Positions 10,339 through 43,281 of a stretch of 64,000 bases of DNA are shown here, piece by piece (within the stretch, counting starts at the first letter, position 1; each line of letters starts with the position of its first letter). The DNA is from a virus (Duplodnaviria; Caudoviricetes). Position numbers and translations under genes: made by a program. Location: positions 12,467 to 76,466 of the IMG/VR virus record IMGVR_UViG_2974594805_000001; one strand, 5' to 3'. A model generated the notes under the pieces. The model was not told the DNA's origin and did not search any database. It was given only the letters and a program-made list of their open reading frames with translations.

Positions 10339-12927
10339 ATGGAAGTCATGAACAGCACCGAATTCGAGCAGAAGGATGTGCTTGTAGGTGGTTCCGGAAA
10401 AACCGGTAAATTCACCGTCACTGATGACCCGCATTTGATGTCGATGCTTTCGACTTCATTGTATGCAAACCCTCTCCGCACAATGATTCAGGAGATCATG
10501 TTCAACGCTTGGGACGCCCACCGTATGGGGAAGTGCCAAGACAAACCAATTGACGTGTATCTCAACGAGACAACCGGTCTGATCGTCCGTGATTACGGTC
10601 CCGGTATCAATCCAGCAGAGATCGACACGATCTACTGCTCCTATGGCAACTCCACAAAGCGTCAGGACGACACACAGACCGGTGGTTTCGGTCTGGGTTC
10701 CAAGAGTCCCTACGCTTACAACGACAGCTTCATGGTGACAAACCACCACGGTGGAAAGAAATCCATGTATATCATGCGTCGTGTTCATGACGAGAATGAT
10801 GGTGGCCCCGGCTACGATCTGGTTGTGGAGAATGTTCCGACTGAAGAGACTGGCCTCATGGTCACTGTCCCCTTCAAGTCGAACTACGACCGTCAGAAAG
10901 CCTACAAGTACATGAAAGAGATCCTGTTCCTGTCAGGAATCAAGGTGAACATTCATTACGAAGGCTCTGACGAAGAAGACGAACTCGTCGAAGCAGAAAG
11001 CCTCGCACCGGGTGAATTCATCAATGCTGATGAAGAGCCTTGTGGGCTGTATGCGGTTTATGGTGGAGTCAAATATGAGATCCCTACTCGTGATGAGTAT
11101 TTCGAAAACTATGAGTTCCTGAAGAAGCTCAGTCACCAGCTTGGTGCTTTGTATATTGGTTTCAAACCAAACAGCCTGACACCTTTGCCGAACCGTGAAG
11201 GTCTCAACATGCGTGAACGCTCTATCGAGAGCATCACTGAGATCTTGGAGACGATTCAGGAGCACTTCTACAGCCACCTGATCCCTGCAACCAAGGCAAC
11301 CATGATGGAGACCCTTCAGGCTGCCAAGACCACTTCTCTCCAGCCCCAGTTTATTGCCTACAAGTGGCAACGGGTCGGAGATGCTCTGTCCATGAGTGAG
11401 ATGGTTCCCCCAGCATGTCCTATCCACGATCTGCTGGAGAATCGTCGTCCTGAAGCCTTCAGTCCTTCCATGTGGATGAGTATCACCAAGCTCTGCTTGA
11501 AGAACTCCCGGTTTGTGGCAGAACTGATCAGTTTCGAGAAGTTCTGGAGCCTGAAAGGGCTTCTCTGGGCCAAAGAGTTCCCTGAGTATCGCCACTGGCG
11601 TTACAACATCATAGACGCTTCCAAGAAGCCGGAAACCATCAACATGGAAGACCGGAGAGACTGGGCCAAGTGGATCATTGGTGTTCAGAAGAAAATCGAA
11701 GCAATCACAGACGGTGATAACAAACCTCGTGTGAAAGGTGACAGTCACAAACTGAACTGGATGATCCTTACCAATCAGCGTCGTGCTGGGAAGTTCGATC
11801 ACTTGTCTGGTCGTAAGAAAGACATCGTGAATGCTCTGGCTCGAACCAAGAAGCTCAAGATCCCGGAGAAATTCTACGATGATCAGCTTTGGTTCCAAAA
11901 AGACGGGAATCCTTTCAACCACACCATGAAGCATGGTGCTGTTATTATTGCCAAAACTGCTCAGGCTCTGAATGACACCAGCTTCAGATTCCAGTCTCTG
12001 ATGGTTCCCAGCAATCCTGACACCTACGGATATAGCTCCATGCACTGGAGTCAGTGGGTACACAATTCCAACATCCAGCCTATCGCTGGCTTCATCGTCC
12101 ACAAGAAAAAAGGACACTATGATGCAGTCAAAGAGATGCTGGAGATGGAAGGCTATCAGGTCATCGAAGCTGATGAACCAGAAGTCAAAGTCCGTGTTGT
12201 GAAACAAGCAGATGGTGAAGAGGTTGAAGTCGAAGAGAAGCCCAAAGGCTTTCCCGTCGTCGATGTGCGTCGATCTCGTTGGAGTACGGACGAATACGTC
12301 CAGAAACCAAGCACATACCTCTACTGCACCGTCAGCAAGCTGGAAGGCTACGACAGGCCCTACAGCGAGTCTTTCGTCTCTCAGGTGATGAAATATGCAC
12401 CGAAGATGGTGATGGTTCACAACAAGGTTCAGGCTGCCAAACTGAGCAAAAATGGCTGCCTGTCATTTGAAGAACGTGTGGAACAGATCGTCGAAGATCT
12501 GCTGGCAGACAAAGAACGTATCCGGATCATGCGTCTGCATCAGTTCATGCACAAGAATTCGAGTCTTCCCAAAGAGTTACTCGACAATTCTGAAGTGCAA
12601 AAGATCTTCGGAGTCCCATATCTCCGGACTGCTCAGAAAGAGAAGTTCAACCGAGATCGGGAGTTCTTGAATGTCTTCATTCGAAATCGTCGTCATCATC
12701 GGTACTACGATACCGATTCACTGGGTATCACACCCAAGCTGAAAGACATGGTGACACGAGCATTCGAAGTTGCAGACGAGGATGACTCTGTTGTTTTGGC
12801 TCGCAAGATCGCCAAGGTGTCCAACTGCTTCGACGAAAACGTGTTGCAGTCCATGGTTCACCAGATGAAACCGGGCGAACGCAAAATGTTCGCTCAAAAG
12901 ATCATCAGATTCTTGCGGACTGTTTGA
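10339..12927 (+). CDS. rIIA: rIIA-like protein with N-terminal GHKL ATPase domain
   Basis: NAWDAH, VRDYGPGI and TGGFGLGSKSP GHKL motifs; followed by rIIB; start moved to ATG 10339 (AAAGGA RBS, downstream of the hairpin). Confidence 0.85.
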   Translation: MEVMNSTEFEQKDVLVGGSGKTGKFTVTDDPHLMSMLSTSLYANPLRTMIQEIMFNAWDAHRMGKCQDKPIDVYLNETTGLIVRDYGPGINPAEIDTIYCSYGNSTKRQDDTQTGGFGLGSKSPYAYNDSFMVTNHHGGKKSMYIMRRVHDENDGGPGYDLVVENVPTEETGLMVTVPFKSNYDRQKAYKYMKEILFLSGIKVNIHYEGSDEEDELVEAESLAPGEFINADEEPCGLYAVYGGVKYEIPTRDEYFENYEFLKKLSHQLGALYIGFKPNSLTPLPNREGLNMRERSIESITEILETIQEHFYSHLIPATKATMMETLQAAKTTSLQPQFIAYKWQRVGDALSMSEMVPPACPIHDLLENRRPEAFSPSMWMSITKLCLKNSRFVAELISFEKFWSLKGLLWAKEFPEYRHWRYNIIDASKKPETINMEDRRDWAKWIIGVQKKIEAITDGDNKPRVKGDSHKLNWMILTNQRRAGKFDHLSGRKKDIVNALARTKKLKIPEKFYDDQLWFQKDGNPFNHTMKHGAVIIAKTAQALNDTSFRFQSLMVPSNPDTYGYSSMHWSQWVHNSNIQPIAGFIVHKKKGHYDAVKEMLEMEGYQVIEADEPEVKVRVVKQADGEEVEVEEKPKGFPVVDVRRSRWSTDEYVQKPSTYLYCTVSKLEGYDRPYSESFVSQVMKYAPKMVMVHNKVQAAKLSKNGCLSFEERVEQIVEDLLADKERIRIMRLHQFMHKNSSLPKELLDNSEVQKIFGVPYLRTAQKEKFNRDREFLNVFIRNRRHHRYYDTDSLGITPKLKDMVTRAFEVADEDDSVVLARKIAKVSNCFDENVLQSMVHQMKPGERKMFAQKIIRFLRTV

Positions 12928-15257: not shown

Positions 15258-15397
15258 CCATCATCGCCATCACTTCGACCGTTACCTTCGGTCTGGTGAT
15301 TTGCGGCCTCATTATGCAGGCCATCAACTACGTTCGCATCAGCAAATACGAACGTGAAATCAAAGGACTGATCAATGATCTTCGTCTTCGGAAGTAA
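15254..15397 (+). CDS. Small membrane protein (47 aa)
   Basis: TTG start overlapping the upstream stop; hydrophobic N-terminal half (IIAITSTVTFGLVICGLIM) and basic tail; not in the ORF track. Confidence 0.5.
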   Translation: MTIIAITSTVTFGLVICGLIMQAINYVRISKYEREIKGLINDLRLRK

Positions 15398-15791
15398 CAA
15401 AGCAGGCATCCACGGTGCGGGTGCTGCAAAATATGCACTCGAACATGAGGGTGCAGTGATGGGTATTGGTGAGGGTATCGTTGGCAACAGCTATGCTCTC
15501 CCAACCAAAGGACACAAGATCGAATTCATCCCACTCAGTGAGGTGGAACATTCGGTCACACGGTTCATCGAAGTCGCTGAATACTGGGCATTACGCGGGG
15601 GCGAGTTCAAAGTGACGCAGGTAGGGTGTGGTCTTGGTGGTTTCACCAAAGAACAGATCGCACCGCTGTTCAAACCAGCACCTGACAACTGTTACTTTGA
15701 TGAGGAATGGAGACCGATCCTCGGAGACCGCTTCAAATACTGGGGAACTGTACCCAGTGACCCGCGTCTCAATACGAGATCGGTATTGTGA
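15375..15791 (+). CDS. Macrodomain-like protein (FVFGSN-HGxGAA family)
   Basis: IFVFGSN..GIHGAGAA and VTQVGCGLGG resemble macrodomain loops 1 and 2 (compare DarG/TARG1-type GCGLGG). Confidence 0.6.
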   Translation: MIFVFGSNKAGIHGAGAAKYALEHEGAVMGIGEGIVGNSYALPTKGHKIEFIPLSEVEHSVTRFIEVAEYWALRGGEFKVTQVGCGLGGFTKEQIAPLFKPAPDNCYFDEEWRPILGDRFKYWGTVPSDPRLNTRSVL

Positions 15792-30076: not shown

Positions 30077-30293
30077 ATTCTTTGGAACATTGATCGGAAC
30101 GATGGGTGTAATCCTCGCCCTGATCATCGTCGCAATCATTGGAGTAGCCGCTGTCTTTATCGGCTACTTCCTGTTGTGGGGCTTCATCGGTCTCTGCATG
30201 ATCGGATTCATCTGGTTCCTGATCTGGGCTGCAATCGACGAATGGAAACAACGTCCTCGTCGAAAGCATGACCCAGATGATCCCGGACCTTAA
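30066..30293 (+). CDS. Small membrane protein
   Basis: Long hydrophobic segment; its stop overlaps the vRNAP stop (TTAA at 30290-30293). Confidence 0.7.
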   Translation: MLTKFFGTLIGTMGVILALIIVAIIGVAAVFIGYFLLWGFIGLCMIGFIWFLIWAAIDEWKQRPRRKHDPDDPGP

Positions 30294-33200
30294 TCCGACA
30301 TCAGGTTTACCCACGGGTTGAGTTCAGGTGCTCCCCAAAGCATCTCATAACCCGTGGCGTAATCCATCCGACCCTCACCGATCACAGTGAAGATGTTATC
30401 CTGAATAGGAGAACCAGTATCTGTGATCGAGTTCAGGGCCATGGCACGGAACGGGTTGTTACGCATCTGCTTTGCAGCAATCTTGGCAATCCGGATCTTG
30501 AAAGCCATGAACCAAGAAAGACCATTACGCTCAAGCATAGAGCGTGTACGACCGGGCAGAGCACTGAAGTTCACAAACTCTTCGTTCATGACACGAATGG
30601 CTGCCACAGGGTCCAGACCCTGATCTAACAAGTGATCGTAGTAGATTGATTTCGCAAGGAAATCCCCATACTGCGTAGCCCGGTTAGCAGCCCGATAGAG
30701 ATCTGTGGACTTACTCACCATACCAATCTTCGCAATGTTACCCAGAGTGTCTGGGAGTTGATCAGCCTTGCTTTCCAGCCAGTCTGCAAGACCACCATTG
30801 GTCTGAGCACGATCAAGATCAGTGATACCTTCTGACAGTTGCTTGTACGCACCAGCAGCGATCATCGGAGCAATGGACATCTTCGCATTCAGATCATTGA
30901 TCACTTGGATCTTGTCGTCGATCAGACGCTGACGACGAGGATCCTGTGTCATACGACGCTGGTTCTCAAGCTCCTTGAGTTTCACATCGTTCTTGTTGAA
31001 CTCGGTGATCTCAGCCAGCTTCTTCCGATAGCCCTGAACAATCTTCTTGTTCGGGACACCATTGGTGGACAACTGGATGATGTTGGCTTGGGTGTTAGCC
31101 ACCGGAACCACGAGAGACTTCACAACAATGATGTCCTTGGCATCGGATACGATACCTTGGAAACCCTGTTCAGCCTGCACCATGAGAGTACGCAGAGACT
31201 TCTGTCCAAACTGCTGCCGTGTGACAGCCTGAACGGTCTTCACAAGCTCTTTAGGCATCCGGGTCTTACCGGTCCAGAGATCAGCCACAGACGCCTCACG
31301 GTAGCCTACGCTGAGGTTTACCATGGATTCCATGATCATTGGTCCCTGACCATCAAACTTGCTGTCCATGTAGCTCTTGATCTCATGAGGGATCAGCTTG
31401 AACGACTCTTTGTAGATCGGATCAGTGGTGGTTTTCAGGTTCACAAACTGATCATCAGTTCCAGTCTCCCGGTTCTGCCACATCTCATCGAGCTTATCGA
31501 CCAGAGCACGGTTGTATTCGTAGGCCAGAGACTCTTCCACCTGACGACCAGCCCATGCACCAAGGTTCGTAGCGAGGTTCTCGTCACGTCCCAGCAGAGC
31601 CTCAGACAGCACAGGATTCACAGACCGTTCAAAGCCTACGATGGCACCCTCACCATCAAACACAGGCATGAGAGTCTCGTTCGGATCCTCCAGTTCATAG
31701 GAATCCAGCACCAGTTCCTCAGCCACTTGGTTCACCACATCCTCACCAGAGATGAAACCAACAGCATCTCCAGTCACTGTGAGGCCCGTGTTTACGTCTA
31801 CCCCACGATAGGTGGACGACACGTTCTGCATCACACCCTGAGAGTATGCACCCTGCTGGGAGATATTGGTGACGTAGTAGGAGCGAGGGAAGGCGTTGTT
31901 CACATCACCAGTGAACGGAGCAACCTTCTTGTATCCACGATGCAGCATATCCTCTTCCATGGAGTCCTCAGCCACTACGATACGATGGTTCTCTCGTCCC
32001 ACATTGGGCAGATATCCTTTGTAACCGTTCAGACGTGCAGCTTCTCCGACAGCTTTAGCGTCTTCCTGCTGGTTCAGATACTGCATGTAAGCGATCATCG
32101 GACGGATACCGTCAGCATCGTTCTGCCACAGTTGTACGGTAATTTCCCGTACATCAGCATCCATCGTGTCGATGGCATACATTGTGATCAGTTCATCAAT
32201 CCATTCGACAACCTGATCAGAAACATCACCTTCGAGGTTCTTGGCGATGGCATATGCATTGCGAACCAACAGCTTACCGACAGACTTCTTGTTCATGAAG
32301 TCAGCCAGTTGCTGGGCTTTCTCTTTCATGTCGTTAAAGTTCGACGGAGACAGCACACCCTGAAGCTGGTTCTCAAGGATCGAGATCTGACGACGACGTG
32401 CAGCACCTTCTTCCAGCATCTGTAGAGACGGCTGAAGGTTGTTCACATCGACATACCGGGTGAAGTCAGTGTTCCCCAGTGTACGCTGCATAGACGCCCA
32501 CTGCTCAGGGACAGGAGCTTCCCGGAATTGACGATTGAAGATACCCGGAAGCTGTTCCCGGTAGCCCTGACGCATACCAGTGACCTTAGCGTTCACCACG
32601 TCCATCATGGCCACGACTTCTTCATTGTCTTTGTTGGTTCCCACGAATTCGTCCACCAGTTCACGGACAGGAACCATAGACAAGATCGGAATACCTGCAT
32701 GAGCAGCACGTTGTGCAGCCTGACCAGTCAGTGCAGTACCAGTATCGTCGAGGAAGTTCGTGATGAATGTCACAGACGACGTAAGGTATTGTTTCATCGA
32801 GCCTTCTTGCTCGGCTTTCACCTGAGCATCAATGTTCCGCATACCTACGGCAGCCTTCTCGAAGCGATTAGAGATCAGGTTATCTGCTGCATCCAGAGTC
32901 TTGGTGACTCCACGGAGCACTGCATATTCCTTCTCGTTGTTGGCTTCGATCAAGGTCTGCTTGAGACCATCAAGAACCTCTTGAGGAGCACCATCTTGGA
33001 TCGACCCCATGAGTTTGCTCATGAAGATCTGAGTTCCACGATGCAGATAGCTGTTCAAAGTCCCAGTTACCTGCTGAGTTTCAGGCTCAGGAATCTGTGC
33101 CACAACATCCCGAAACTTCTGAGAAGTCTGCTGAAGAGCAAACATCACAGCCACAGCGTCAGAAGTATCACCCCGTTTGAAACTACCAAACGAGTTGATC

Positions 33201-36200
33201 ACAGCAGAGTATTCGTTACCGGCTTCTGAACCAGAACCAAACATCTCAGGAGTCATGTTCTCTTCGACATGCTGGAATACTTTTGTCAGTGCAATCAAAG
33301 AGTTCGGATCGAGAGTCATCTCAGACTTCATGATACCGTAGATGGCACGGAAGGTCTGACGATCTTCAGGATTACGAAGCATCCCAGCCTGACGAAGACT
33401 GTCGATCACAGCATCTGCATTCAGGATATCCTGTGCAGTGTCACGACGACGACGTGTACCGGTAGCATCATCTCCCAGTCCGTCGATGTATCCAACCAGC
33501 TTCTCGATCCAGTAGTTCGTGTAGTTGTTGGACATTGGGGTCAGATCCCCACCGTCTCCAGAACCACCATCACCATTGCCACCACCTCCAGTCACATCAT
33601 CCAACGGAGGATCAATGATGATCTTGGTGTTGAATGCAGTCTGAGTGAACATATCCCGAGAAACCCCACCCATCAGACGACGCATCAGAGCAATCAGTTT
33701 CTCACCGATTGCCTGAAGAGGTGTGGTTTTCTCAGCCTTACGACGGACCTGAGAGTTTGCCAGCACGTAAGCCATGAATTCATTCACAGCCATAGCCTGA
33801 CGTGTCGGATCTGTCTGATTGACATGCCGTAGTATGGCAGCCTGAGCATCACGCACAGTCTGTCCACCATCCTCAATCTTGAGGAAGTCACGCATCAGGG
33901 ACTCCATACGAGTCACAGCAGCCTGACGATCTCCATTGTAGTGGTTCTCTACACGTTTGAACGTAGCAGCATGAACCATCTCATGAAGCACAGTCTCAGG
34001 CTTGTCCGTCGTCAGATACACGATGTCATTCACATGATCGTATGCACCATTGGCATCGGTCATGATTGCACCGTTGTCTGGGTTGTTCTGTGTTTGCCAG
34101 TCACGGATTTGATCCACAGTCCCCAGCACCACACGAGTCTCATCAGACAGACCCGGCATGATGATATCCAGAACCTGTTTCTGTTTGGCGGTAAACCGCA
34201 GAGATTTCAGGAATGCATCTGCTTTGGTTTCGAATACCTCAGCACGAACATCTTCCTGTACCTCTGCGGGTTTACCTTCCATCTCACGCGCAATCAGGAC
34301 ATTGAGTTCTGTGAAGCCAACTTCACGACCTTCACGAGTGTAACCGACATCGGAGCCACCCATCTGATCGACGGATGCAGCTACAGTCTTGAAGACAGCC
34401 TTTCTTGCTTTGTTGGCAGCCAGTCTCTGATCCAATTGTACCATCAGATCGGCTACATTCGAGGCGGTGACTGAAGATTTTTTGTTTTTGTCCATAACCT
34501 TTTGATATGCTTGAGAAAGAATATCAGCATCGACATCCGAGTTGATGAAACCACGGAAGTTTTCCACAGCCATAGACATCACATCACGCTGCCAAGTCTG
34601 TGATACAGCTTGGTTCACACGAGGTGCATAGTCTTGGATCTTGGACAGAGGAATATCCAAACCATCGAAGATCCCCAGTACGTCGTCAGGTGCTCCCTCT
34701 GTGCCGAAGATGTAGTTCATCATCATGGCGTCGCCTGAACCAATCACAGAGAATGGGATAGACCGAACACCCACGTCGTCAGGAAGACGCATGTAAGCGA
34801 AGTCATTGATCTGCTCATCGAAGTTTGACGATGTACGGATCAGACCACGACCTTTCTGGAAACCACCAATCGCAAGAGTCTGGTCATCTGACACGAACAA
34901 GGGGGCCATCTGACCCAGTTCAAGCTCAAGCTCCCGGAAATACTTCCGTGGGATCTGAGACAGATTCTTTTTACTCTTGATGATACCTTCGTTTTCGAGC
35001 CGTTCAGCCAGTTCATTGAGACGAATCTCGTAGATGTCACGCAGATACTGAGACTGAACGTTTGTCGAGAAAACCATCAGATCATTGAATTCATTGATCT
35101 TTTCACCGATCACCTGCTGAGTTGCCTCAGTCAGAGTGTCACCAATAGTGTACTGGATCCGGGTCCGGAATTTCTTGATCGACTCTTTATCGAAGACCTT
35201 CGAACGGGACGGCTTATCGTCAATGATAAGACCCATGGTTTCCATGTCTTTCTTGAAACCCGGATAGAAGTATTCGTCCACAGGTACTTCCGGAGGACGT
35301 TTCTGCATCTCTTCGTAGAACTTCAGCATCATGTCATCTGCCACACCGACAGCAACACCACGAACACCAGAGCCATAGTTCACCTTGGTCATTGGGTTCT
35401 TAGAAGAGTTACGGCTCATGGTAATGACACCAGACTCTTCGTCGATATCGAAGTTCCCGATAGTCGCAGCCAGACGCACAGCAGCACCACGCTGCTCTTG
35501 CTGCCATGGTTCCAGACCTTTCATGTTGCCCAGCATCTTGTCACCCAGACGAGACACGGTTTCATACATGTCAAGTGAACCAGCTTTCGCATAGTATTTG
35601 TTGACGGTTTCACCCATCTTCCCAATGAAGAAACCCACTTTCTGGAAGTTGGAATAGTCTTCCGGAGTCAGTTCACCCTGACCGAAGTTCACCATCATGT
35701 TGGCAACACCATTGGTCAAACCATCAAGCTCAAAGCTCAGGCTTGTATCAAAGGTTGATGCACCATCTTCCACTGCCATCTCAAGCTGAGCGACAGCGAT
35801 GATTGCTTTCAGTTGCTGAGGTTCGATCACTCCAGTCGTTTCGAACAGAGCATCTTGATCTACTTCTCCAGATCGAATCAGGTTTTTGATATGCGGAACT
35901 GCATCACCAAACTTGGCATAGAACTTCTCAGACGCATTGGCGATGATGTCTGCGTGTGAGAGTTTCTCAGCCTTGTTGATGCCACCGATGTCAGATGCCT
36001 GACCCACAGCGATCCAGAAGTTATCCAGATCAGTCACGTCCACAGTGCTCCATGTAGGAGCCACGACAGCACGCATGACTTTGTTGGACTGGGGGTTTGG
36101 TCCCTGAGCCTGATGACGACCCACCTTGGTGATACCATAGGGGAAATACACAGGCATACGGTTGCTGGGATTACCAGCAGCAGACAGGAGAGCCTGAGTC

Positions 36201-39200
36201 TCAGCAATGTTCATCTCGATAGACAAGTTTTTGCCACGAATAGAACGCTGAAGAACTGGGTTCGGGTTGTTGTCCACAGTCTCATCGTAACCAAACAGAC
36301 GACGTAGATTCTCGATACCAGAGAACACAGTGGCAGCCGCAGCATCCACATAGTTCGGAGTATCCTGCATCTTCTGAAGAGCTTTACGTTCAACATCAGA
36401 CAGTTGCACACGAGTACGATCCTGTGTCCGAGCCACAGATGTGAGTTTCTCACCCACAGCGTAGATCGGAGCACTGTCACCAAACAACACTTCCTTGGCT
36501 GTCAGTTTCTTACCCGGTCCATTCTCTGCACGAGTAGCATCCCGGATCTCACGCATCTCACCGTTGTTGACGATGATTGTGAAGATATCACGATCACCTT
36601 CTTCACGAGTCGTGGTGACTTTCTCCACCGATACGAGATCTGTGTTCTCACTCAGAGCAGTGAACAGTTCTTTGGCAAAGCCCTGCATCGTACCTTCGAG
36701 ATCATCCACAGCAGACTCTGGATCTTCTTCAATGTCGAGCAGACGCATCAGATCAAAGGCCAGACCATCACCAGCTTGGTTAGGCGGAACACCATTCAGG
36801 ATGGAGTTGAAGTCCCCATCGTTTATGTCGTTCACAGAAACTCCAAGTTTTTCAAGGGTTTCTTCCAAGCGGTTCGGATCAGAGCCTGTGTTGGTCAGCA
36901 GCCAGTCAGCCATAGCCACAGCAGCCATGTCGATGACACGATCACTGAACTCACCGGTCTCAGGATCGACCAGCAGACCAGCTTTGAAGCGACGGAATTG
37001 AGTACGACCATCAAGGATGTGCTGACGGATAGTCTTCGTCACGCCACCATCTTTGACCTTCTTGTCGAGACGAGCACTGAGAGACTCAGCAATGACAGGA
37101 CGCAGAGACTTCACAAACTCTTTGGTTTGAGAATTGAGTGGAGAACCTTCAGTAACTGTCAGAAACTCACCCAAGTTTTTCGGATGAGCTTCTGTATCTT
37201 TGGCTTTGAAAAAGCTGAAGAAAGTCGGGTTTACTCGGTAGTCACCGGATTCGACCTCGCTCCCAGCGTCTTCTGCTGGGGTGGTGTCTCCGTCAACATC
37301 TCCTCCGGTGTCCCCATCTGTGTCGGGCTGTTGTACTTCCGTTTCGGATACTTCAGTGGCAGTTCCAGTTGCTTCGGTTCCGATGAGATCGCCATATACA
37401 TGCTCCAATACTGCTGCGGTTTCAGAGAGATCTCCCTCGATAACCTCAGTGGTGAAGGCCATCTCAGTGGCCACAGCAAACAGTTCCGAAGAGATCTGCT
37501 CCGGAGTACCACGAGTGAATGCATACTCCAATCGACCATTGAAGTAGTTGCTGAGGTTTCCACGCAACGCATTCATTTCGTTGAAAACTTTTCCACCTTT
37601 GAAGAAAGTACGTGCCGACGACACAGGCATATCCCCATCAGGATTCCTATGGTTGTCAACGATGTGACCCACTTCATGTACGAGGACTGCACGACCCTGT
37701 GCTGTCAACTCTTGGTTTTCATCAAACAGATCTTCCCGCATACGAACTTCACGAGTATCGAACACAGCACGTCCCAGATCATTGGCACGAGCAGGCATCA
37801 CATTCAGTACACGCACAGCAGACGCCAGAGGACCGAATACCAGCTTCATCTGGTTCCGGGCATTGTCACGACGTGCCTTGAGAGTCTCACGCATACGAGC
37901 CTTCTCAGCGTCTGTCATTTGATCGACAAAATCATTCCATGGGAGAGTAGCATCAAGCTCGGACTCCTCCGTCTCCGTAGACCCTTCCTCAGTCGCTGTC
38001 GCTCCTTCGTCAGATTCTACGGCCCCGTCGGACCCCTCGATAGTCTGCGAGCGTTCTTCATCACTGAGAGTCCCATCGACATCTGTGTCGAGTTGAATGA
38101 TCTGATCGTTGGACTCAGCAATGATCATTCCTTCGTTCTCATTGAACAGAAGGATACCATCATACCGACCCTCAGCCTTACGCTGTTCAAGTGTCAGAGC
38201 ATTGGCAAGCCAGAAGTCCTGTGGATCCATGCCATCCGGAACTTGTTCCGACAAAGGATTCGCAAGACGGACATTCATACTGATTAGACGAGGTGTACCA
38301 GTCCCATCCCCACGAGCGAACTCACGAGCCAGACCCTTACGAGTCGTCAGGAAAATACCTCCATCCCGGAACTCAGAGAATACTGCATTGGTTCCATGGT
38401 AGAAGGTAATCGGATCACCATTCTCATCAGAGATGATATCGTCTCCGTTGATCTCCATCGGGGGATCTTCACGAGTTATACCATCATCAGTTACATCTGT
38501 ATTTTGACCCTCCTCAGAGACGGCTGGGGCCGTCTCTTCGTCGATAGTCTCCGAGGGGTTTGTTTCCACGGACGAATCAATGTCATTACGGGGGTTTTCT
38601 GTTTGTATTGTTTCTTCTGCTCGGGCGTTCGCTTCGCCCTCGATAGCCGTTGGGCTGTCGTTTTCCTTACGCAAAGTGACTGGAACCACCTCAGACAGAC
38701 CTTCGAAGATCTCCGGGAATTCCTTTTGAATTGAGGCCAGTACGGTCTCTGCTGTCCGGGTGTCGTTCTCGACCTGTTGCGCAAATGCAACACTTCCCGG
38801 AGCACCACGGGAATAACGAACCGGAGCAAAGTAGTTGTCCGGAGAGTCTTTGTCATAGAAACGTTCACCGTTGGCCAAACCAGAGAACTTCACAGTCGGA
38901 CCAGACAGTTGACCTGTCTTCGGATTGACAAAGTTATTGTCGAAGGACTCATTGAGAGCCTCGATCCGGTTGTTCATATGCTGCACGAAGTTACGAAGAC
39001 GTTTCACTTCACGCTGCACAGTTGTCTTGTTGCCTTCACGATCAGTGAATTCCCCAGTCGGAGACTGGAGACCGGTGATGATATTGGCAGCCATATCATT
39101 CACAGAAGGCAGAGTCTTACCACTGCGAGTCTTGAAACCAGCAGCAAGGATAGACCGGGAAGTCTGCTGCACCGACTCTCCTTTGCCGGTGGCTTCGCCT

Positions 39201-41329
39201 TCGCGTGAAAGAGTGACTCCGTTCGATCTCTCGATCTCGATACGGGAGTCCAAGTTACCGTTGATTGCTCGGCTCACGTTGGAAGCAGCACGAGTGATCT
39301 TCAGATCTTGTTCACTGATATTTTCTCCCGACTCTTCCAAGAGTTGATCGGTACGATCAGGATCGACGTTCGCAGGATTGGTCTTCGCCACGTTCACTGT
39401 GGTGGAGACCTCCTGCGGCGTTACCGGACCCGTAGGGGTATTGGTATTCAGATCGAGTTTCTCAGCATCAGCAAGGATCTTAGTTGCAGTCTTTGACGAC
39501 AGGATCTTCCCAATACGCCGTTTGGCACCAACAGGCAGAGATTCTGCCACTTGGCGTAGACGGTTGATCTGGGTAGCAGCAAAAGCTGTATCCTCATCAC
39601 TGGGACGGAAACCTCGCTCAGACATCTTGGCTGTGATACCAGCCACAGTCTCAACAACGTTGTTACCTTCTAAACCAGCAAAACCTTCTGACGGAGTATC
39701 CACAGTGGAGAGGTTTGCCACGACTTGATCGTCAAGGTTTCCTTCATCCACCAGAGAAATGATGGTTTCATTGGCATCCAGTGCATCCTGAGACGCTTGT
39801 GTAGCATCATTGTTGTTCTCACGAGACACAAAGTCTGTTGCGTATGCCACAGCAGGACTCTGTGCGACAGTAGATGCAAGGTTTCTGGCTTGCGTTGTGA
39901 CATTGCCAGCCAAATCACTTGCAGCCTGTGTAGCTCGCTGAGCAGGTGAAGCTGTTCCTACAATGTCCTGACGCAGAGGATCATTGAACTGAGTCTCAGT
40001 GAAGAGAGCATCAGCAGCATTTCGTGCTTGGTTTGCAATGACACGGCCAGTTGCCGTACCAGTCTGCACAGCCATACGAGGTGAACCAAGTGCAGCAGCA
40101 GTACCCATACCTGCCAGAGCACCGATTGCAGCCTCTTCACCAACACCCTCGAATGTGGCTCGACCAATGTTTGCCATCTCTTCGACAGCAACGTTCCGGT
40201 TCACAGTGGCAGAACCACCTTGCAGAGCTTCTTCAACACCTTCACCTGCAACTTGCAGGAGGTTTTGAGCAATAGAGTTTCCACGGAAAGCAGCAGGCCC
40301 CAGAGCTTCAAAGCGATTGGTTACATAACCAAAGGCAATGGTAGGAGCGATCTGACGAACAGCAGCCGTTTCAGCAGTGATACCAGCCAGTTGTACCCGT
40401 GCTTCTTCGGGTGTCATATCCGGATTCTCATCCATGATGGCTTGAAATACCGGTGAAGTCTCAGACAGTACCTCGATAGGAACACCCATCACATCCTGCA
40501 CAGTCTCACTGTAGAGGTTTGTGACTTCAGGAGCACCTGTGGCAGCAGAGATGGCCGTAGCTTGAGCCACACGCTGTGCCAGTGCATTCTGGGTCATACG
40601 GGCTGTCATGCCCTTGGCTACGGCTCCTGACGCTCCACCGAGTGGTGCAGTGAAAACCATAGAACCAATAGACTCAGCGATGATGTTCCCTGCAAGAGAA
40701 GGATCACGGGTAAACCGTTCCACAGCATTCAGGGCATCACGACCTTGGTGAGCTAAACCAGCAAACAAAGGTGAATCACCTTCAGCCAGATCTCGCTCGT
40801 ACTGAGCTTGAGAGTCTGCCCGGTCAAGTTCACCTTCAATGGCTTCAAAATACCGACGGTCTTGGAGTTCTTGAGACAGATTCTGCTCTTGCATTCCTGC
40901 CACGATATCACCGTGAGCAGCCAAAAGTTCAGCAGATCGACGACGACCACCGTCTAGACCTTCATCGTTCCACCATGCACGAGCATAAGAATCAGCGATG
41001 ATACCGATTGAACCAATGTCTCGATATGCACCAATGGATGCAGACTTGGCGATATCCAGAGCACGTTCACCGAAACCCTGTTCTGCATTATCAGACTGTT
41101 GAAGACGATCACGTCCGTCCATCAGACGGTGACGGTTCATTGCAACCTCGTTGCCATACTTGGCAGCAAGTTCCAGTTGCGACATTTCACGAAGATCTGT
41201 GTGAAGTTCAGTCTGAGCTAGGTCATTTCCTCGATCTTCAGCGACAGCAGCAATGTCTTGCGTAACGGTATCACGCAGAGATTCCGCAATGATGTCATCG
41301 GGAGACGGAGTTCGAGGAGTATCGACCAT
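30290..41329 (-). CDS. Virion-encapsidated RNA polymerase (N4 gp50-like), 3679 aa
   Basis: Start read from the reverse complement at 41329 (MVDTPRTPSPDD); single-subunit RNAP motifs TKVGR, FELDGLTNG, RNSSKNPMTKVNYG, IFDG; no Cys seen. Confidence 0.97.
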   Translation of the reverse strand: MVDTPRTPSPDDIIAESLRDTVTQDIAAVAEDRGNDLAQTELHTDLREMSQLELAAKYGNEVAMNRHRLMDGRDRLQQSDNAEQGFGERALDIAKSASIGAYRDIGSIGIIADSYARAWWNDEGLDGGRRRSAELLAAHGDIVAGMQEQNLSQELQDRRYFEAIEGELDRADSQAQYERDLAEGDSPLFAGLAHQGRDALNAVERFTRDPSLAGNIIAESIGSMVFTAPLGGASGAVAKGMTARMTQNALAQRVAQATAISAATGAPEVTNLYSETVQDVMGVPIEVLSETSPVFQAIMDENPDMTPEEARVQLAGITAETAAVRQIAPTIAFGYVTNRFEALGPAAFRGNSIAQNLLQVAGEGVEEALQGGSATVNRNVAVEEMANIGRATFEGVGEEAAIGALAGMGTAAALGSPRMAVQTGTATGRVIANQARNAADALFTETQFNDPLRQDIVGTASPAQRATQAASDLAGNVTTQARNLASTVAQSPAVAYATDFVSRENNNDATQASQDALDANETIISLVDEGNLDDQVVANLSTVDTPSEGFAGLEGNNVVETVAGITAKMSERGFRPSDEDTAFAATQINRLRQVAESLPVGAKRRIGKILSSKTATKILADAEKLDLNTNTPTGPVTPQEVSTTVNVAKTNPANVDPDRTDQLLEESGENISEQDLKITRAASNVSRAINGNLDSRIEIERSNGVTLSREGEATGKGESVQQTSRSILAAGFKTRSGKTLPSVNDMAANIITGLQSPTGEFTDREGNKTTVQREVKRLRNFVQHMNNRIEALNESFDNNFVNPKTGQLSGPTVKFSGLANGERFYDKDSPDNYFAPVRYSRGAPGSVAFAQQVENDTRTAETVLASIQKEFPEIFEGLSEVVPVTLRKENDSPTAIEGEANARAEETIQTENPRNDIDSSVETNPSETIDEETAPAVSEEGQNTDVTDDGITREDPPMEINGDDIISDENGDPITFYHGTNAVFSEFRDGGIFLTTRKGLAREFARGDGTGTPRLISMNVRLANPLSEQVPDGMDPQDFWLANALTLEQRKAEGRYDGILLFNENEGMIIAESNDQIIQLDTDVDGTLSDEERSQTIEGSDGAVESDEGATATEEGSTETEESELDATLPWNDFVDQMTDAEKARMRETLKARRDNARNQMKLVFGPLASAVRVLNVMPARANDLGRAVFDTREVRMREDLFDENQELTAQGRAVLVHEVGHIVDNHRNPDGDMPVSSARTFFKGGKVFNEMNALRGNLSNYFNGRLEYAFTRGTPEQISSELFAVATEMAFTTEVIEGDLSETAAVLEHVYGDLIGTEATGTATEVSETEVQQPDTDGDTGGDVDGDTTPAEDAGSEVESGDYRVNPTFFSFFKAKDTEAHPKNLGEFLTVTEGSPLNSQTKEFVKSLRPVIAESLSARLDKKVKDGGVTKTIRQHILDGRTQFRRFKAGLLVDPETGEFSDRVIDMAAVAMADWLLTNTGSDPNRLEETLEKLGVSVNDINDGDFNSILNGVPPNQAGDGLAFDLMRLLDIEEDPESAVDDLEGTMQGFAKELFTALSENTDLVSVEKVTTTREEGDRDIFTIIVNNGEMREIRDATRAENGPGKKLTAKEVLFGDSAPIYAVGEKLTSVARTQDRTRVQLSDVERKALQKMQDTPNYVDAAAATVFSGIENLRRLFGYDETVDNNPNPVLQRSIRGKNLSIEMNIAETQALLSAAGNPSNRMPVYFPYGITKVGRHQAQGPNPQSNKVMRAVVAPTWSTVDVTDLDNFWIAVGQASDIGGINKAEKLSHADIIANASEKFYAKFGDAVPHIKNLIRSGEVDQDALFETTGVIEPQQLKAIIAVAQLEMAVEDGASTFDTSLSFELDGLTNGVANMMVNFGQGELTPEDYSNFQKVGFFIGKMGETVNKYYAKAGSLDMYETVSRLGDKMLGNMKGLEPWQQEQRGAAVRLAATIGNFDIDEESGVITMSRNSSKNPMTKVNYGSGVRGVAVGVADDMMLKFYEEMQKRPPEVPVDEYFYPGFKKDMETMGLIIDDKPSRSKVFDKESIKKFRTRIQYTIGDTLTEATQQVIGEKINEFNDLMVFSTNVQSQYLRDIYEIRLNELAERLENEGIIKSKKNLSQIPRKYFRELELELGQMAPLFVSDDQTLAIGGFQKGRGLIRTSSNFDEQINDFAYMRLPDDVGVRSIPFSVIGSGDAMMMNYIFGTEGAPDDVLGIFDGLDIPLSKIQDYAPRVNQAVSQTWQRDVMSMAVENFRGFINSDVDADILSQAYQKVMDKNKKSSVTASNVADLMVQLDQRLAANKARKAVFKTVAASVDQMGGSDVGYTREGREVGFTELNVLIAREMEGKPAEVQEDVRAEVFETKADAFLKSLRFTAKQKQVLDIIMPGLSDETRVVLGTVDQIRDWQTQNNPDNGAIMTDANGAYDHVNDIVYLTTDKPETVLHEMVHAATFKRVENHYNGDRQAAVTRMESLMRDFLKIEDGGQTVRDAQAAILRHVNQTDPTRQAMAVNEFMAYVLANSQVRRKAEKTTPLQAIGEKLIALMRRLMGGVSRDMFTQTAFNTKIIIDPPLDDVTGGGGNGDGGSGDGGDLTPMSNNYTNYWIEKLVGYIDGLGDDATGTRRRRDTAQDILNADAVIDSLRQAGMLRNPEDRQTFRAIYGIMKSEMTLDPNSLIALTKVFQHVEENMTPEMFGSGSEAGNEYSAVINSFGSFKRGDTSDAVAVMFALQQTSQKFRDVVAQIPEPETQQVTGTLNSYLHRGTQIFMSKLMGSIQDGAPQEVLDGLKQTLIEANNEKEYAVLRGVTKTLDAADNLISNRFEKAAVGMRNIDAQVKAEQEGSMKQYLTSSVTFITNFLDDTGTALTGQAAQRAAHAGIPILSMVPVRELVDEFVGTNKDNEEVVAMMDVVNAKVTGMRQGYREQLPGIFNRQFREAPVPEQWASMQRTLGNTDFTRYVDVNNLQPSLQMLEEGAARRRQISILENQLQGVLSPSNFNDMKEKAQQLADFMNKKSVGKLLVRNAYAIAKNLEGDVSDQVVEWIDELITMYAIDTMDADVREITVQLWQNDADGIRPMIAYMQYLNQQEDAKAVGEAARLNGYKGYLPNVGRENHRIVVAEDSMEEDMLHRGYKKVAPFTGDVNNAFPRSYYVTNISQQGAYSQGVMQNVSSTYRGVDVNTGLTVTGDAVGFISGEDVVNQVAEELVLDSYELEDPNETLMPVFDGEGAIVGFERSVNPVLSEALLGRDENLATNLGAWAGRQVEESLAYEYNRALVDKLDEMWQNRETGTDDQFVNLKTTTDPIYKESFKLIPHEIKSYMDSKFDGQGPMIMESMVNLSVGYREASVADLWTGKTRMPKELVKTVQAVTRQQFGQKSLRTLMVQAEQGFQGIVSDAKDIIVVKSLVVPVANTQANIIQLSTNGVPNKKIVQGYRKKLAEITEFNKNDVKLKELENQRRMTQDPRRQRLIDDKIQVINDLNAKMSIAPMIAAGAYKQLSEGITDLDRAQTNGGLADWLESKADQLPDTLGNIAKIGMVSKSTDLYRAANRATQYGDFLAKSIYYDHLLDQGLDPVAAIRVMNEEFVNFSALPGRTRSMLERNGLSWFMAFKIRIAKIAAKQMRNNPFRAMALNSITDTGSPIQDNIFTVIGEGRMDYATGYEMLWGAPELNPWVNLMSD

Positions 41330-41391: not shown

Positions 41392-43281
41392 TCATTCAGC
41401 ACGAGAACGACGTTGTTCAACGTCTGCAATCTGCCCAGTGATGTTGTTCAACTGAGTTTGCAGTGCTCGATACTGTGCAGAACCTTCCGGATACTGAGCC
41501 AACTGAGCACGGATAAGCTGTGCTTGGCTCCGGAGAGAACCCAGTTCCTGTTCCATAACCTGCACAGAACGTTGGCTTTCACGGAAGTCACGTTCATCAC
41601 GCTGGTCGATAGTACCAATGATCTCGTCGATACGGTCTCTATCGAAACGATTCGACAGAGTGTTCCGACCCGAGGGATCACGCTCAAAGCCACGAACAAA
41701 GGCAGCAGCAGCAACTTCAGGACGAACGTTGTTCCGACGTGCAGCGTCTTCGATCATACGATCCAGTTGGTTCACGTCAAAACCAGACTCACCAAATCCA
41801 AGGATTGAAGTTGGGTTTTCAGGATCTGAATCAAGACCAAGACGATCAGCAACATTCTGACCAACAGTTGAAGTATCAGTGGCAGCCAGACGATCTGCAT
41901 CAGCGAAGACTGCGAACCGTGGGTTTGCTTCATTGGCTGCATTTGCAGCTTCCACAGCACCTTCGACCAGAGCAACAGTCTCTGGATCCTCAGATACGTT
42001 GGGACGAAGACGACCCGGATCCTGTTCAATCAGACCACGGAGAGTCTCATACCGTGCCTCGTTTTCAGTTGCTGTGAAGCGATCATCAGCAAAGGTAGCA
42101 CGACGAAGATCTTCAATCGTGTTGATCTCTGGATTGTCCAGAAGTTGTTGGTTCGCAGTTGCTGTAAGCTCTTGAAGAGTCTCGTTATTTCGACGAGTTT
42201 CCAGTTCCAGCAATTCAGCAGAACGCTGTTCACCTGCTTGCTGAGCACCAGACAGAGCAGCATCAATCTGATCAGAGCGAAGACCAGCAGCAAGAAGCTG
42301 TTCTCGTGCCTGCATCATTGGTGTGGCGATCTGAACACCGTTACCACCACCTTTTTCAGACGACCACTCACGGAAACGTCCCACATTCATGTTACGAAGG
42401 AATGGATTGGCTTCGATCACATTGGCAGGAAGAACATCAACCAGACGAGTATCATCTGATTGTGTCAGCACAGACCGTGCTCCACCCAAACCAAGGAAGT
42501 GAGCAGCATAGAGATTGCCCTCAGTAATCGGAATGTTCGAATTCTGAAGACCTTGCATATTCACTTCAGTAAAGCGACGCAAAGCACGTTGAGACTGAGC
42601 CGGGTCAGTACGACCATCAGCAGTCAGACCCAGATCAGGGTGATCACGCATCATCTGTTGCCATGTCGAGTCAATGAATTGACCCAGACCAGTAGCAGAA
42701 GACCGTGGGTTTCGTGCATTTGGATTACCACTAGACTCAGATTGAATGGTGGCTGCCAGATAGTTTTCGAAAGCATCACCACCAGTCTGAGTGATTGGGC
42801 CAACCACATCACCATGTTCACGACGGAATTGCTGTGATTCTTGGATCAGACCAGCAGCAGCACGAAGTGCTTGGTCATCAGAATAAGCCTGATCCCTCAG
42901 ACGGTTAGCGTCTGCTTCTTGTCCTTGAGCAATAGCCAGACGACCATCACGGTTCCCGATGATCGAACGGTCATTCATGAAGCCCAGTGTTGCAGCACGC
43001 TGTCCCAAGAGACGTTCACGCATACCATCAGAGATCTGGAGATCACTCAGACCACCACCAGCAAGGAATGCATCCAGTTCAGCTTCATCATTGATGCCTG
43101 CCAAACGGTGTGCAGCCTCTGCATCACCAGCAGCTTCACGACCTGCTTGGTAACGGCCAAGAATGTCACTCGCAGCATTTGCAGCGTTGTTGAAACCCTC
43201 ATTGGCCTGCCGAAGCAGAGGAGCCACATTGGGCTGTGCGGTTGCGAGTTGCCGCCATTGAAGTCGTGCGTCACGAGTCAT
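41392..43281 (-). CDS. Ejection/internal virion protein with lytic transglycosylase domain (N4 gp51 position)
   Basis: IQSESSGNPNARNPRSSATGLGQFIDSTW and LYAAHFLG are lysozyme-like/SLT motifs. Confidence 0.85.
   Translation of the reverse strand: MTRDARLQWRQLATAQPNVAPLLRQANEGFNNAANAASDILGRYQAGREAAGDAEAAHRLAGINDEAELDAFLAGGGLSDLQISDGMRERLLGQRAATLGFMNDRSIIGNRDGRLAIAQGQEADANRLRDQAYSDDQALRAAAGLIQESQQFRREHGDVVGPITQTGGDAFENYLAATIQSESSGNPNARNPRSSATGLGQFIDSTWQQMMRDHPDLGLTADGRTDPAQSQRALRRFTEVNMQGLQNSNIPITEGNLYAAHFLGLGGARSVLTQSDDTRLVDVLPANVIEANPFLRNMNVGRFREWSSEKGGGNGVQIATPMMQAREQLLAAGLRSDQIDAALSGAQQAGEQRSAELLELETRRNNETLQELTATANQQLLDNPEINTIEDLRRATFADDRFTATENEARYETLRGLIEQDPGRLRPNVSEDPETVALVEGAVEAANAANEANPRFAVFADADRLAATDTSTVGQNVADRLGLDSDPENPTSILGFGESGFDVNQLDRMIEDAARRNNVRPEVAAAAFVRGFERDPSGRNTLSNRFDRDRIDEIIGTIDQRDERDFRESQRSVQVMEQELGSLRSQAQLIRAQLAQYPEGSAQYRALQTQLNNITGQIADVEQRRSRAE

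Follow-up and report, generated by a model that had tools for sequence, protein, structure and literature searches.

A virion RNA polymerase with an ADP-ribosyltransferase domain and an additional metallopeptidase as a plausible injected effector of an N4-like roseophage

We describe the virion RNA polymerase (vRNAP) encoded in a 64,000-nucleotide stretch of viral DNA (positions 12,467 to 76,466 of IMG/VR record IMGVR_UViG_2974594805_000001, Duplodnaviria, Caudoviricetes; hereafter the window). It is the 'polyvalent' vRNAP of an N4-like roseophage, in which an ADP-ribosyltransferase (ART) domain and an additional metallopeptidase (MP1) are carried on acidic disordered linkers between the N-terminal region and the polymerase core. 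The two domains are real, and a function as injected effectors is plausible; the architecture itself is known. In searches with DNA and protein the phage falls within the N4-like roseophages (Schitoviridae, Rhodovirinae), and Sulfitobacter phage vB_SupP_AX (AX) is its nearest relative. The vRNAP is encoded by a single open reading frame (ORF) of 3679 amino acids (aa), of which aa 10-3678 are spanned by PHROG 2206 'virion RNA polymerase' with 3160 bits. Three N4-type-specific Pfam domains are found within it, namely vRNAP_dom_2 (aa 1647-1755), N4_RNAP_helical (1954-2009) and vRNAP_dom (2188-2324), so that the protein is homologous to the N4-type virion RNA polymerase (Schitoviridae gp50) over its full length, with both the polymerase core and the C-terminal metallopeptidase region represented. 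The parts follow in the order N-terminal region, ART, MP1, polymerase core, a canonical N4-type metallopeptidase region (MP2) and C-terminal region, and those that concern us here are located as follows:

30290..41329, minus strand: vRNAP gene, N4 gp50 homologue, 3679 aa (single ORF; PHROG 2206; Pfam vRNAP domains)
38087..38428, minus strand: ART-PolyVal ADP-ribosyltransferase domain, aa 968-1081 (Pfam PF18760, AlphaFold2 (AF2) model, PDB fold matches)
37370..37960, minus strand: extra zincin metallopeptidase MP1, aa 1124-1320 (AF2 model, PDB fold matches, invariant metal-site residues)
34340..37128, minus strand: RNA polymerase core, about aa 1401-2330 (three Pfam vRNAP domains; 80% identity to AX)
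33650..34342, minus strand: canonical N4-type metallopeptidase region MP2, aa 2330-2560 (HEMVH at 2449-2453, NEFMAY downstream, after the polymerase core)

A preliminary description of this DNA, drawn from its letters, had placed both inserted domains between acidic low-complexity linkers just before the polymerase core. This location is confirmed: the stretches flanking ART and MP1 (approximately aa 891-970, 1071-1130 and 1311-1360) contain 27-37% aspartate plus glutamate per 30-aa window, and all the ART and peptidase motifs it had quoted lie, to the residue and the base, where it had put them in ORF 30290-41329(-).

The same description had recognised an ART-PolyVal pattern, which holds at the level of family profile, family columns and predicted fold. 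Pfam PF18760 (ART-PolyVal) matches aa 968-1077 with 36.0 bits against a gathering score of 31.2 (E 1.4e-08; profile positions 1-130 of 140), far more than chance would give. The motifs run TFYHGT (975-980; bases 38390-38407), GGIFLT (990-995), AREFA (1001-1005), RLANPL (1021-1026), RYDGI (1055-1059), NEGMIIA (1065-1071) and NDQI (1074-1077), and the predicted active-site positions are H978, F993, F1004, D1057 and Q1076. We take the layout YHGT...G-x-aromatic-x-T...A-x-x-aromatic to resemble the SYHGT / GFYST / AAGYS of diphtheria toxin. A profile built from this vRNAP copy and six IMG/VR relatives retrieved 2274 representatives at E<=1e-3 from 1.84 billion cluster representatives (clustered at 50% identity), mostly very large proteins, and among the top 150 a polymerase is present in only 8. 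Searching by word index for stand-alone ART proteins of 75-240 aa returned none, and the only match of the profile to PDB chain sequences was a chance one to Hfq (E 0.74). As a separate observation, giant metagenome proteins of 2000-5800 aa (P0002, P0008, P0010, P0016 and others) hold up to 12 ART-PolyVal profile matches each, many of which comprise the N-terminal half only (profile positions ~12-75).

Residue usage was counted in 506 ART domain stretches taken from the top 150 representatives. The strand-1 His of YHGT is found in 498 of 501 stretches and is invariant in the seven roseophage copies (H978), the Asp column is occupied by Asp in 181 of ~190 aligned stretches (D1057, again invariant in the roseophage copies), and 'QI' has its Gln in 103 of ~109; the GT, NP, DG and QI of the vRNAP ART all agree with the family columns. 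At the strand-2 aromatic column the family has F 207, Y 190 and W 44 (here F993), and at the helix aromatic column Y 294 and F 107 (here F1004). All roseophage ART copies have Phe at strand 2, as against Tyr in the published family description (PMC5512222). Judged by sequence, the vRNAP ART keeps the family's normal set of conserved residues in its common Phe variant. These positions are retained in copies only 28-76% identical, and the dN/dS of the ART against its two closest copies is ~0.07, a rough ratio given that dS is near saturation. Relative to Dinoroseobacter phage vB_DshP-R7L (R7L), dN is 0.135 in the ART and 0.515 in the polymerase core. Purifying selection on the ART is evident from these comparisons.

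Structural modelling led to the same family. The AF2 model of aa 954-1090 has a pLDDT (predicted local distance difference test) of 84.1 and a pTM (predicted TM-score) of 0.79, and positions H978 in strand 1 (model 23-26), F993 in strand 2 (39-42), F1004 in the next helix (45-53) and D1057 directly before or at the start of strand 5 (105-109). This placement of H978, F993 and D1057 is the H/aromatic/D arrangement of Iyer et al. (PMC5512222), and therefore supports identity with ART-PolyVal. Foldseek against the PDB returned tankyrases, PARP4 and the MbcT toxin (probability 0.95-1.0, E from 4e-3). Structure prediction had been proposed as a check on both inserted segments, and for the ART, almost all of the 30 best PDB matches in an exhaustive structural scan (VIA-align; Z 4.3-6.5) were proteins with the ART fold, headed by tankyrase 1 (6.5), MbcT (6.2), ParT (6.2) and PARP2 (6.1), with NatT, Arr, exotoxin A, cholix and diphtheria toxin lower down. 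We accept the ART fold because this list is uniform, not because of single Z values. Among predicted viral structures (BFVD) the best match is the vRNAP of RD-1410W1-01 (TM-score 0.87), after which come dozens of phage proteins labelled ART-PolyVal in UniProt. Sequence and model together identify aa 968-1081 as a predicted ART of the H-aromatic-D type, on the diphtheria-toxin/PARP-like side of the ART superfamily. One further hit, a chain of the cyanophage A4 pre-ejectosome (9k3a_B, Z 5.8), is aligned over more than 1100 residues and comes from a paper that makes no mention of an ART; we dropped it as probably not meaningful.

For the second inserted domain, the AF2 model of aa 1124-1320 (pLDDT 90.3, pTM 0.87) adopts a zincin fold, in agreement with the peptidase call of the preliminary description. 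The structure it matches best is that of the anthrax lethal factor catalytic domain (Z 10.8 over 158 residues, root-mean-square deviation 3.7 Å), followed by PPEP-2 (Z 9.6), PPEP-3 (Z 8.7) and a long tail of other zincins. The motif HEVGH occupies aa 1218-1222 (37664-37678), with D1225 close by and SSELFA downstream at 1280-1285 (37475-37492) containing E1282. In six roseophage MP1 copies, otherwise 26-54% identical, H1218, E1219, H1222, D1225, E1282, F1284, A1285 and E1289 are invariant, and from the invariant HExxH and the downstream SSELFA a gluzincin-type metal site is to be expected. Nothing in Pfam scored above threshold on MP1, the best being Peptidase_M48 (16.5 bits versus 20.3), which covers the HExxH helix only. 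MP1 therefore shows HExxH and a downstream Glu ligand on a zincin fold and falls outside the M34 sequence profile; on the sequence and the model, we regard it as a predicted zincin with a lethal-factor-like fold that is not a member of M34.

The HExxH peptidase had also been called 'extra', and correctly so, since a second HExxH, the HEMVH of MP2, belongs to the canonical N4 peptidase. A tblastn search recovered MP2 from 219 phage records, Escherichia phage N4 among them (E 2e-10), and the HExxH and NEFMA of MP2 are invariant in seven roseophages, whereas MP1 is confined to 20 roseophage records. Sequence comparison thus indicates that MP1 is additional to MP2. We considered that MP1 might be a recent duplicate of MP2 and ruled this out, as profile comparison pairs only the HExxH helix (probability 3.7%).

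The two domains are distributed patchily among roseophage vRNAPs:

ART and MP1: the phage described here, R7L, DSS3phi2 with V12/V14/V17/V21, EE36phi1, and Roseovarius Plymouth podovirus 1 (RPP1)/RLP1
ART only: RD-1410W1-01 and two IMG/VR contigs (L007, L008)
MP1 only: AX, V13, DFL12phi1 and R2C
Neither ART nor MP1 detected: phiCB2047-B

ART and MP1 behave as independent cassettes, separately present or absent. The two contigs in this series, L007 (3300025652_000454) and L008 (3300020607_000001), encode uncultured roseophage-like vRNAPs whose ARTs are 72-76% and 60-63% identical, respectively, to the one described here, and in both the ART linker runs directly into the polymerase region with no MP1 between.

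Within this gene, the region that holds both domains has a history different from that of the polymerase core:

37259..38536, minus strand: exchanged cassette, aa 932-1357, consisting of acidic linker, ART, acidic linker, MP1 and acidic linker (blastn breaks, tree conflict)

In blastn comparisons, DNA homology to AX breaks off at aa 931 and is picked up again at aa 1358, both breaks lying within acidic linkers; in the interval R7L gives the best nucleotide matches, with 79% identity across the ART and 76% across aa 1211-1347. The polymerase-core tree joins the phage to AX (support 100) with V13 next (99), while the MP1 tree groups it with R7L, DSS3phi2 and EE36phi1 (100/99). In approximately unbiased (AU) tests, forcing the core to group with R7L and DSS3phi2 was rejected (p-AU 5e-35), as was forcing MP1 to group with AX and V13 (p-AU 7e-5), although the groups were picked after seeing the identity table, which somewhat weakens the formal p-values. 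The ART tree is too short to resolve. The solid evidence for exchange therefore consists of the conflict between MP1 and core trees together with the homology breakpoints, and the simplest account of these sequences would be a single replacement of aa 932-1357 through recombination in the linkers, bringing in the ART along with an MP1 of the R7L/DSS3phi2 type. We rejected the idea that the ART was recently acquired from an R7L-like phage, as synonymous sites are saturated in every comparison (pS 0.5-0.7) and the ART tree does not resolve, leaving neither timing nor donor to be read from it. Looking for DNA repeats in the linkers that could have served as recombination substrates, we found only chance-level pairs of 15-24 nucleotides. 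A second mosaic segment is seen at the start of the same gene (40130-41329(-), aa 1-400), which is 54-63% identical to RPP1 (per 100 aa) and 26-37% to AX, and is most like RPP1 and V13.

What might these domains do? N4 packages its vRNAP and delivers it into the cell together with the leading genome end (PMC5512222). The preliminary description had assumed the same here, and packaging and injection would follow from homology to the N4 vRNAP, the full-length PHROG 2206 match and an N4-type gene context both supporting this reading. The neighbours are typical of the group, with SSB and a RusA-like gene on the plus strand downstream of the vRNAP gene, and upstream of it a protein with a transglycosylase region:

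41392-43281, minus strand: protein of 629 aa encoded immediately upstream of the vRNAP, with a transglycosylase-like region (aa 173-310; PHROG 14527/4067)

This 629-aa protein is the positional counterpart of a 'cell wall hydrolase' or structural protein in R7L and RPP1. A further ORF lies opposite the ART/MP1 region:

36404-38287, plus strand: antisense ORF of 627 aa (no PHROG family)

Having no family match, it is regarded as spurious rather than as a gene, and is probably a by-product of codon usage in the acidic linkers.

From these elements we infer a course of events in which catalysis, target, timing and any self-processing are all conjectural. Packaged in the capsid, the vRNAP would be delivered along with the genome's leading end, placing ART and MP1 in the host cytoplasm, with NAD+ and zinc at hand, before phage transcription. 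There the ART could bind host NAD+ through H978, the aromatic pair F993/F1004 and D1057, and transfer ADP-ribose to one or more host macromolecules, which would aid early infection by takeover of host machinery or by disabling a defence. MP1 might cut the polyprotein in its linkers after entry, or cleave a host protein. That the ART is an active, host-directed enzyme is the reading we lean towards, with some reserve; the odds for any particular target are lower. An enzyme that arrives with the leading phage DNA is able to work before a single phage gene has been read, which makes it a prime candidate for taking over the host or overcoming its immunity.

Several points weigh against an active, injected effector. 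The Z values of the ART fold are middling (best 6.5) and alone would be no proof of the fold. Phe replaces Tyr at both the strand-2 and the helix position, a common state in the family that might nevertheless affect catalysis here. Several related phages do without ART, MP1 or both, and neither domain is therefore essential to the N4-like life cycle. The literature we searched contains no experiment on any ART-PolyVal domain or roseophage vRNAP, its mentions of ART-PolyVal being computational only, and the roseophage genome and proteome papers searched are silent on a vRNAP ART. Finally, the N4 vRNAP is packaged unprocessed (PMC5512222), which lends no support to peptidase-driven release before packaging; this report bears on MP2 and on a phage, N4, that has no MP1.

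The best-surviving alternative to a host protein as target, which we nonetheless consider unlikely, is that the ART modifies nucleic acid (the ends or bases of DNA or RNA, or transcripts of the fused polymerase that carry an NAD cap) or a small molecule, or merely consumes NAD+. It earns its share because MbcT (Z 6.2), NatT (5.7), the rifampicin ART Arr (5.6), RES/Xre-RES (5.1) and an RNA 2'-phosphotransferase-like (Tpt1-like) protein (5.0) score comparably to the protein ARTs alongside which they appear. It would also fit the presence of D rather than E in the active site and the covalent tethering of the ART to an RNA polymerase, the N4 vRNAP being an enzyme that works on single-stranded promoter hairpins. 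Set against this, more than 2000 ART representatives are known from our search and a polymerase accompanies so few of the top ones that the chemistry appears independent of an attached RNA polymerase; moreover, Iyer et al. place ART-PolyVal with the protein-modifying ARTs (PMC5512222).

Action in cis or on phage components, for instance auto-modification of the vRNAP that regulates ejection or promoter use, is in our view improbable. Fusion to the polymerase keeps the ART at very low copy and next to its own polypeptide, and automodification is common among PARP-type ARTs, yet the close relatives AX and V13 run the same polymerase with no ART, and the family resides mostly in polyvalent proteins other than polymerases. 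Conservation, together with this wide occurrence of the ART apart from polymerases, makes both the cis reading and the catalytically dead domains discussed below less likely.

More speculative still, and given very little weight here, is the idea that the ART cooperates with the fused polymerase, acting on NAD-capped early transcripts or ADP-ribosylating nucleic acid (DNA or RNA) at the promoter hairpin; a single injected polypeptide would then both make and chemically attach or mark nucleic acid, with ART and peptidase forming a mobile effector cassette traded by linker recombination. That one or both inserted domains are catalytically dead, serving as structural spacers or as ejection plugs in the capsid or channel, is likewise highly improbable: the papers searched report no activity, both domains are dispensable in relatives and Phe stands for Tyr at two aromatic positions, but H, D and Q of the ART and HExxH, D and E of MP1 are invariant even where copies share as little as 27-28% identity, the ART has a low dN, and Phe is a normal family state at both positions.

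One gene elsewhere in the window was considered as a partner of the ART:

15375-15791, plus strand: N4 gp14-like protein, 138 aa (PHROG 2072)

The protein is annotated as a macro-domain in Pectobacterium phages Possum and Horatius; here it gave no Pfam or PADLOC match, and defence-system models returned no match. Its family is present in 454 phage records, among them the ART-less AX, V13 and DFL12phi1, Pseudomonas and Escherichia phages and some jumbo Pseudomonas phages. As it does not co-vary with the ART, we rejected it as a dedicated macrodomain 'eraser'.

The preliminary description had rated the architecture as highly novel, which is not supported. Iyer, Burroughs, Anand, de Souza and Aravind (J Bacteriol 2017; PMC5512222) described the ART-PolyVal family as 'prototyped' by the vRNAP of RPP1 (CBX87992.1), noted that N4-like RNA polymerases carry 'one or more' metallopeptidases and that some are additionally fused to an NAD+-dependent ART, and grouped ART-PolyVal, for which they gave the residue set H / strand-2 Tyr / D, with the protein-modifying ARTs. 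They likened the metallopeptidase region of the N4 vRNAP (aa 2130-2448) to lethal factor and proposed that the metallopeptidases might process the vRNAP autoproteolytically, in the head or after injection (PMC5512222). The injected ART is thus an already published computational hypothesis of 2017 (PMC5512222), and the domain architecture has been described in print and is annotated in Pfam and UniProt. New here are the evidence for cassette exchange and a further example; no new kind of system is added. ART-PolyVal is a very large family, and the literature searched holds no biochemical characterisation of it. The roseophage vRNAPs form a natural series (both domains, ART only, peptidase only, neither) in which function could be tested in cultivable marine hosts. 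This series and the cassette exchange, unsurprising in themselves, are useful for testing the 2017 hypothesis.

Compared with known systems, the RPP1 vRNAP (CBX87992.1, locus L006:6444-17726) shares the gene, the order of parts and the host group, and is homologous to the present domains by BLAST (ART E 2e-5 to 5e-11, MP1 E 7e-15). It differs in being 28% (ART) and ~30% (MP1) identical and in having, along with V13, an MP1 of another subtype; the polymerase core described here groups with AX and V13, not with RPP1. R7L gp66 carries both cassettes, and its ART is the closest known copy (75-81% identity in amino acids, 79% in nucleotides), with an MP1 that is 53-55% identical overall and 77% in its C-terminal half, whereas the rest of its vRNAP is only ~47% identical and belongs to a different clade on the polymerase-core tree. 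Conversely, the AX vRNAP shows 73% identity across aa 1126-3679, with 80% in the polymerase core, but has no counterpart of aa 935-1125, and hence no ART, and its MP1, 31-32% identical, is of another lineage.

Beyond the roseophages, MP1 resembles anthrax lethal factor and the PPEPs (MEROPS M34; Z 10.8, 9.6 and 8.7 over 139-158 residues) in its HExxH followed ~60 residues on by an E-[FL]-F-A helix with the putative third zinc ligand, and departs from them in its 14-15% identity, in matching no Pfam M34 family and in being embedded in a phage polyprotein. MP2 and the N4 region have, like MP1, an HExxH and a downstream xEFxA motif, and occur across the Schitoviridae, as opposed to roseophages only. 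For the ART, the preliminary description had drawn an analogy with T4 Alt, of which one half holds. T4 Alt is an ART of the R-S-E type. The active site here is H-F-D, and the domain gives neither a sequence or profile match to Alt nor a hit to an Alt-type Pfam family, so that the catalytic type is not that of Alt. T4 Alt is moreover a separate protein of demonstrated activity, whereas the ART here is predicted, fused to a polymerase and of the H-aromatic-D type. The functional likeness, already drawn for the vRNAP ART by Iyer et al. (PMC5512222), is the half that stands: in both cases the virion would deliver an ART that is ready before phage gene expression.

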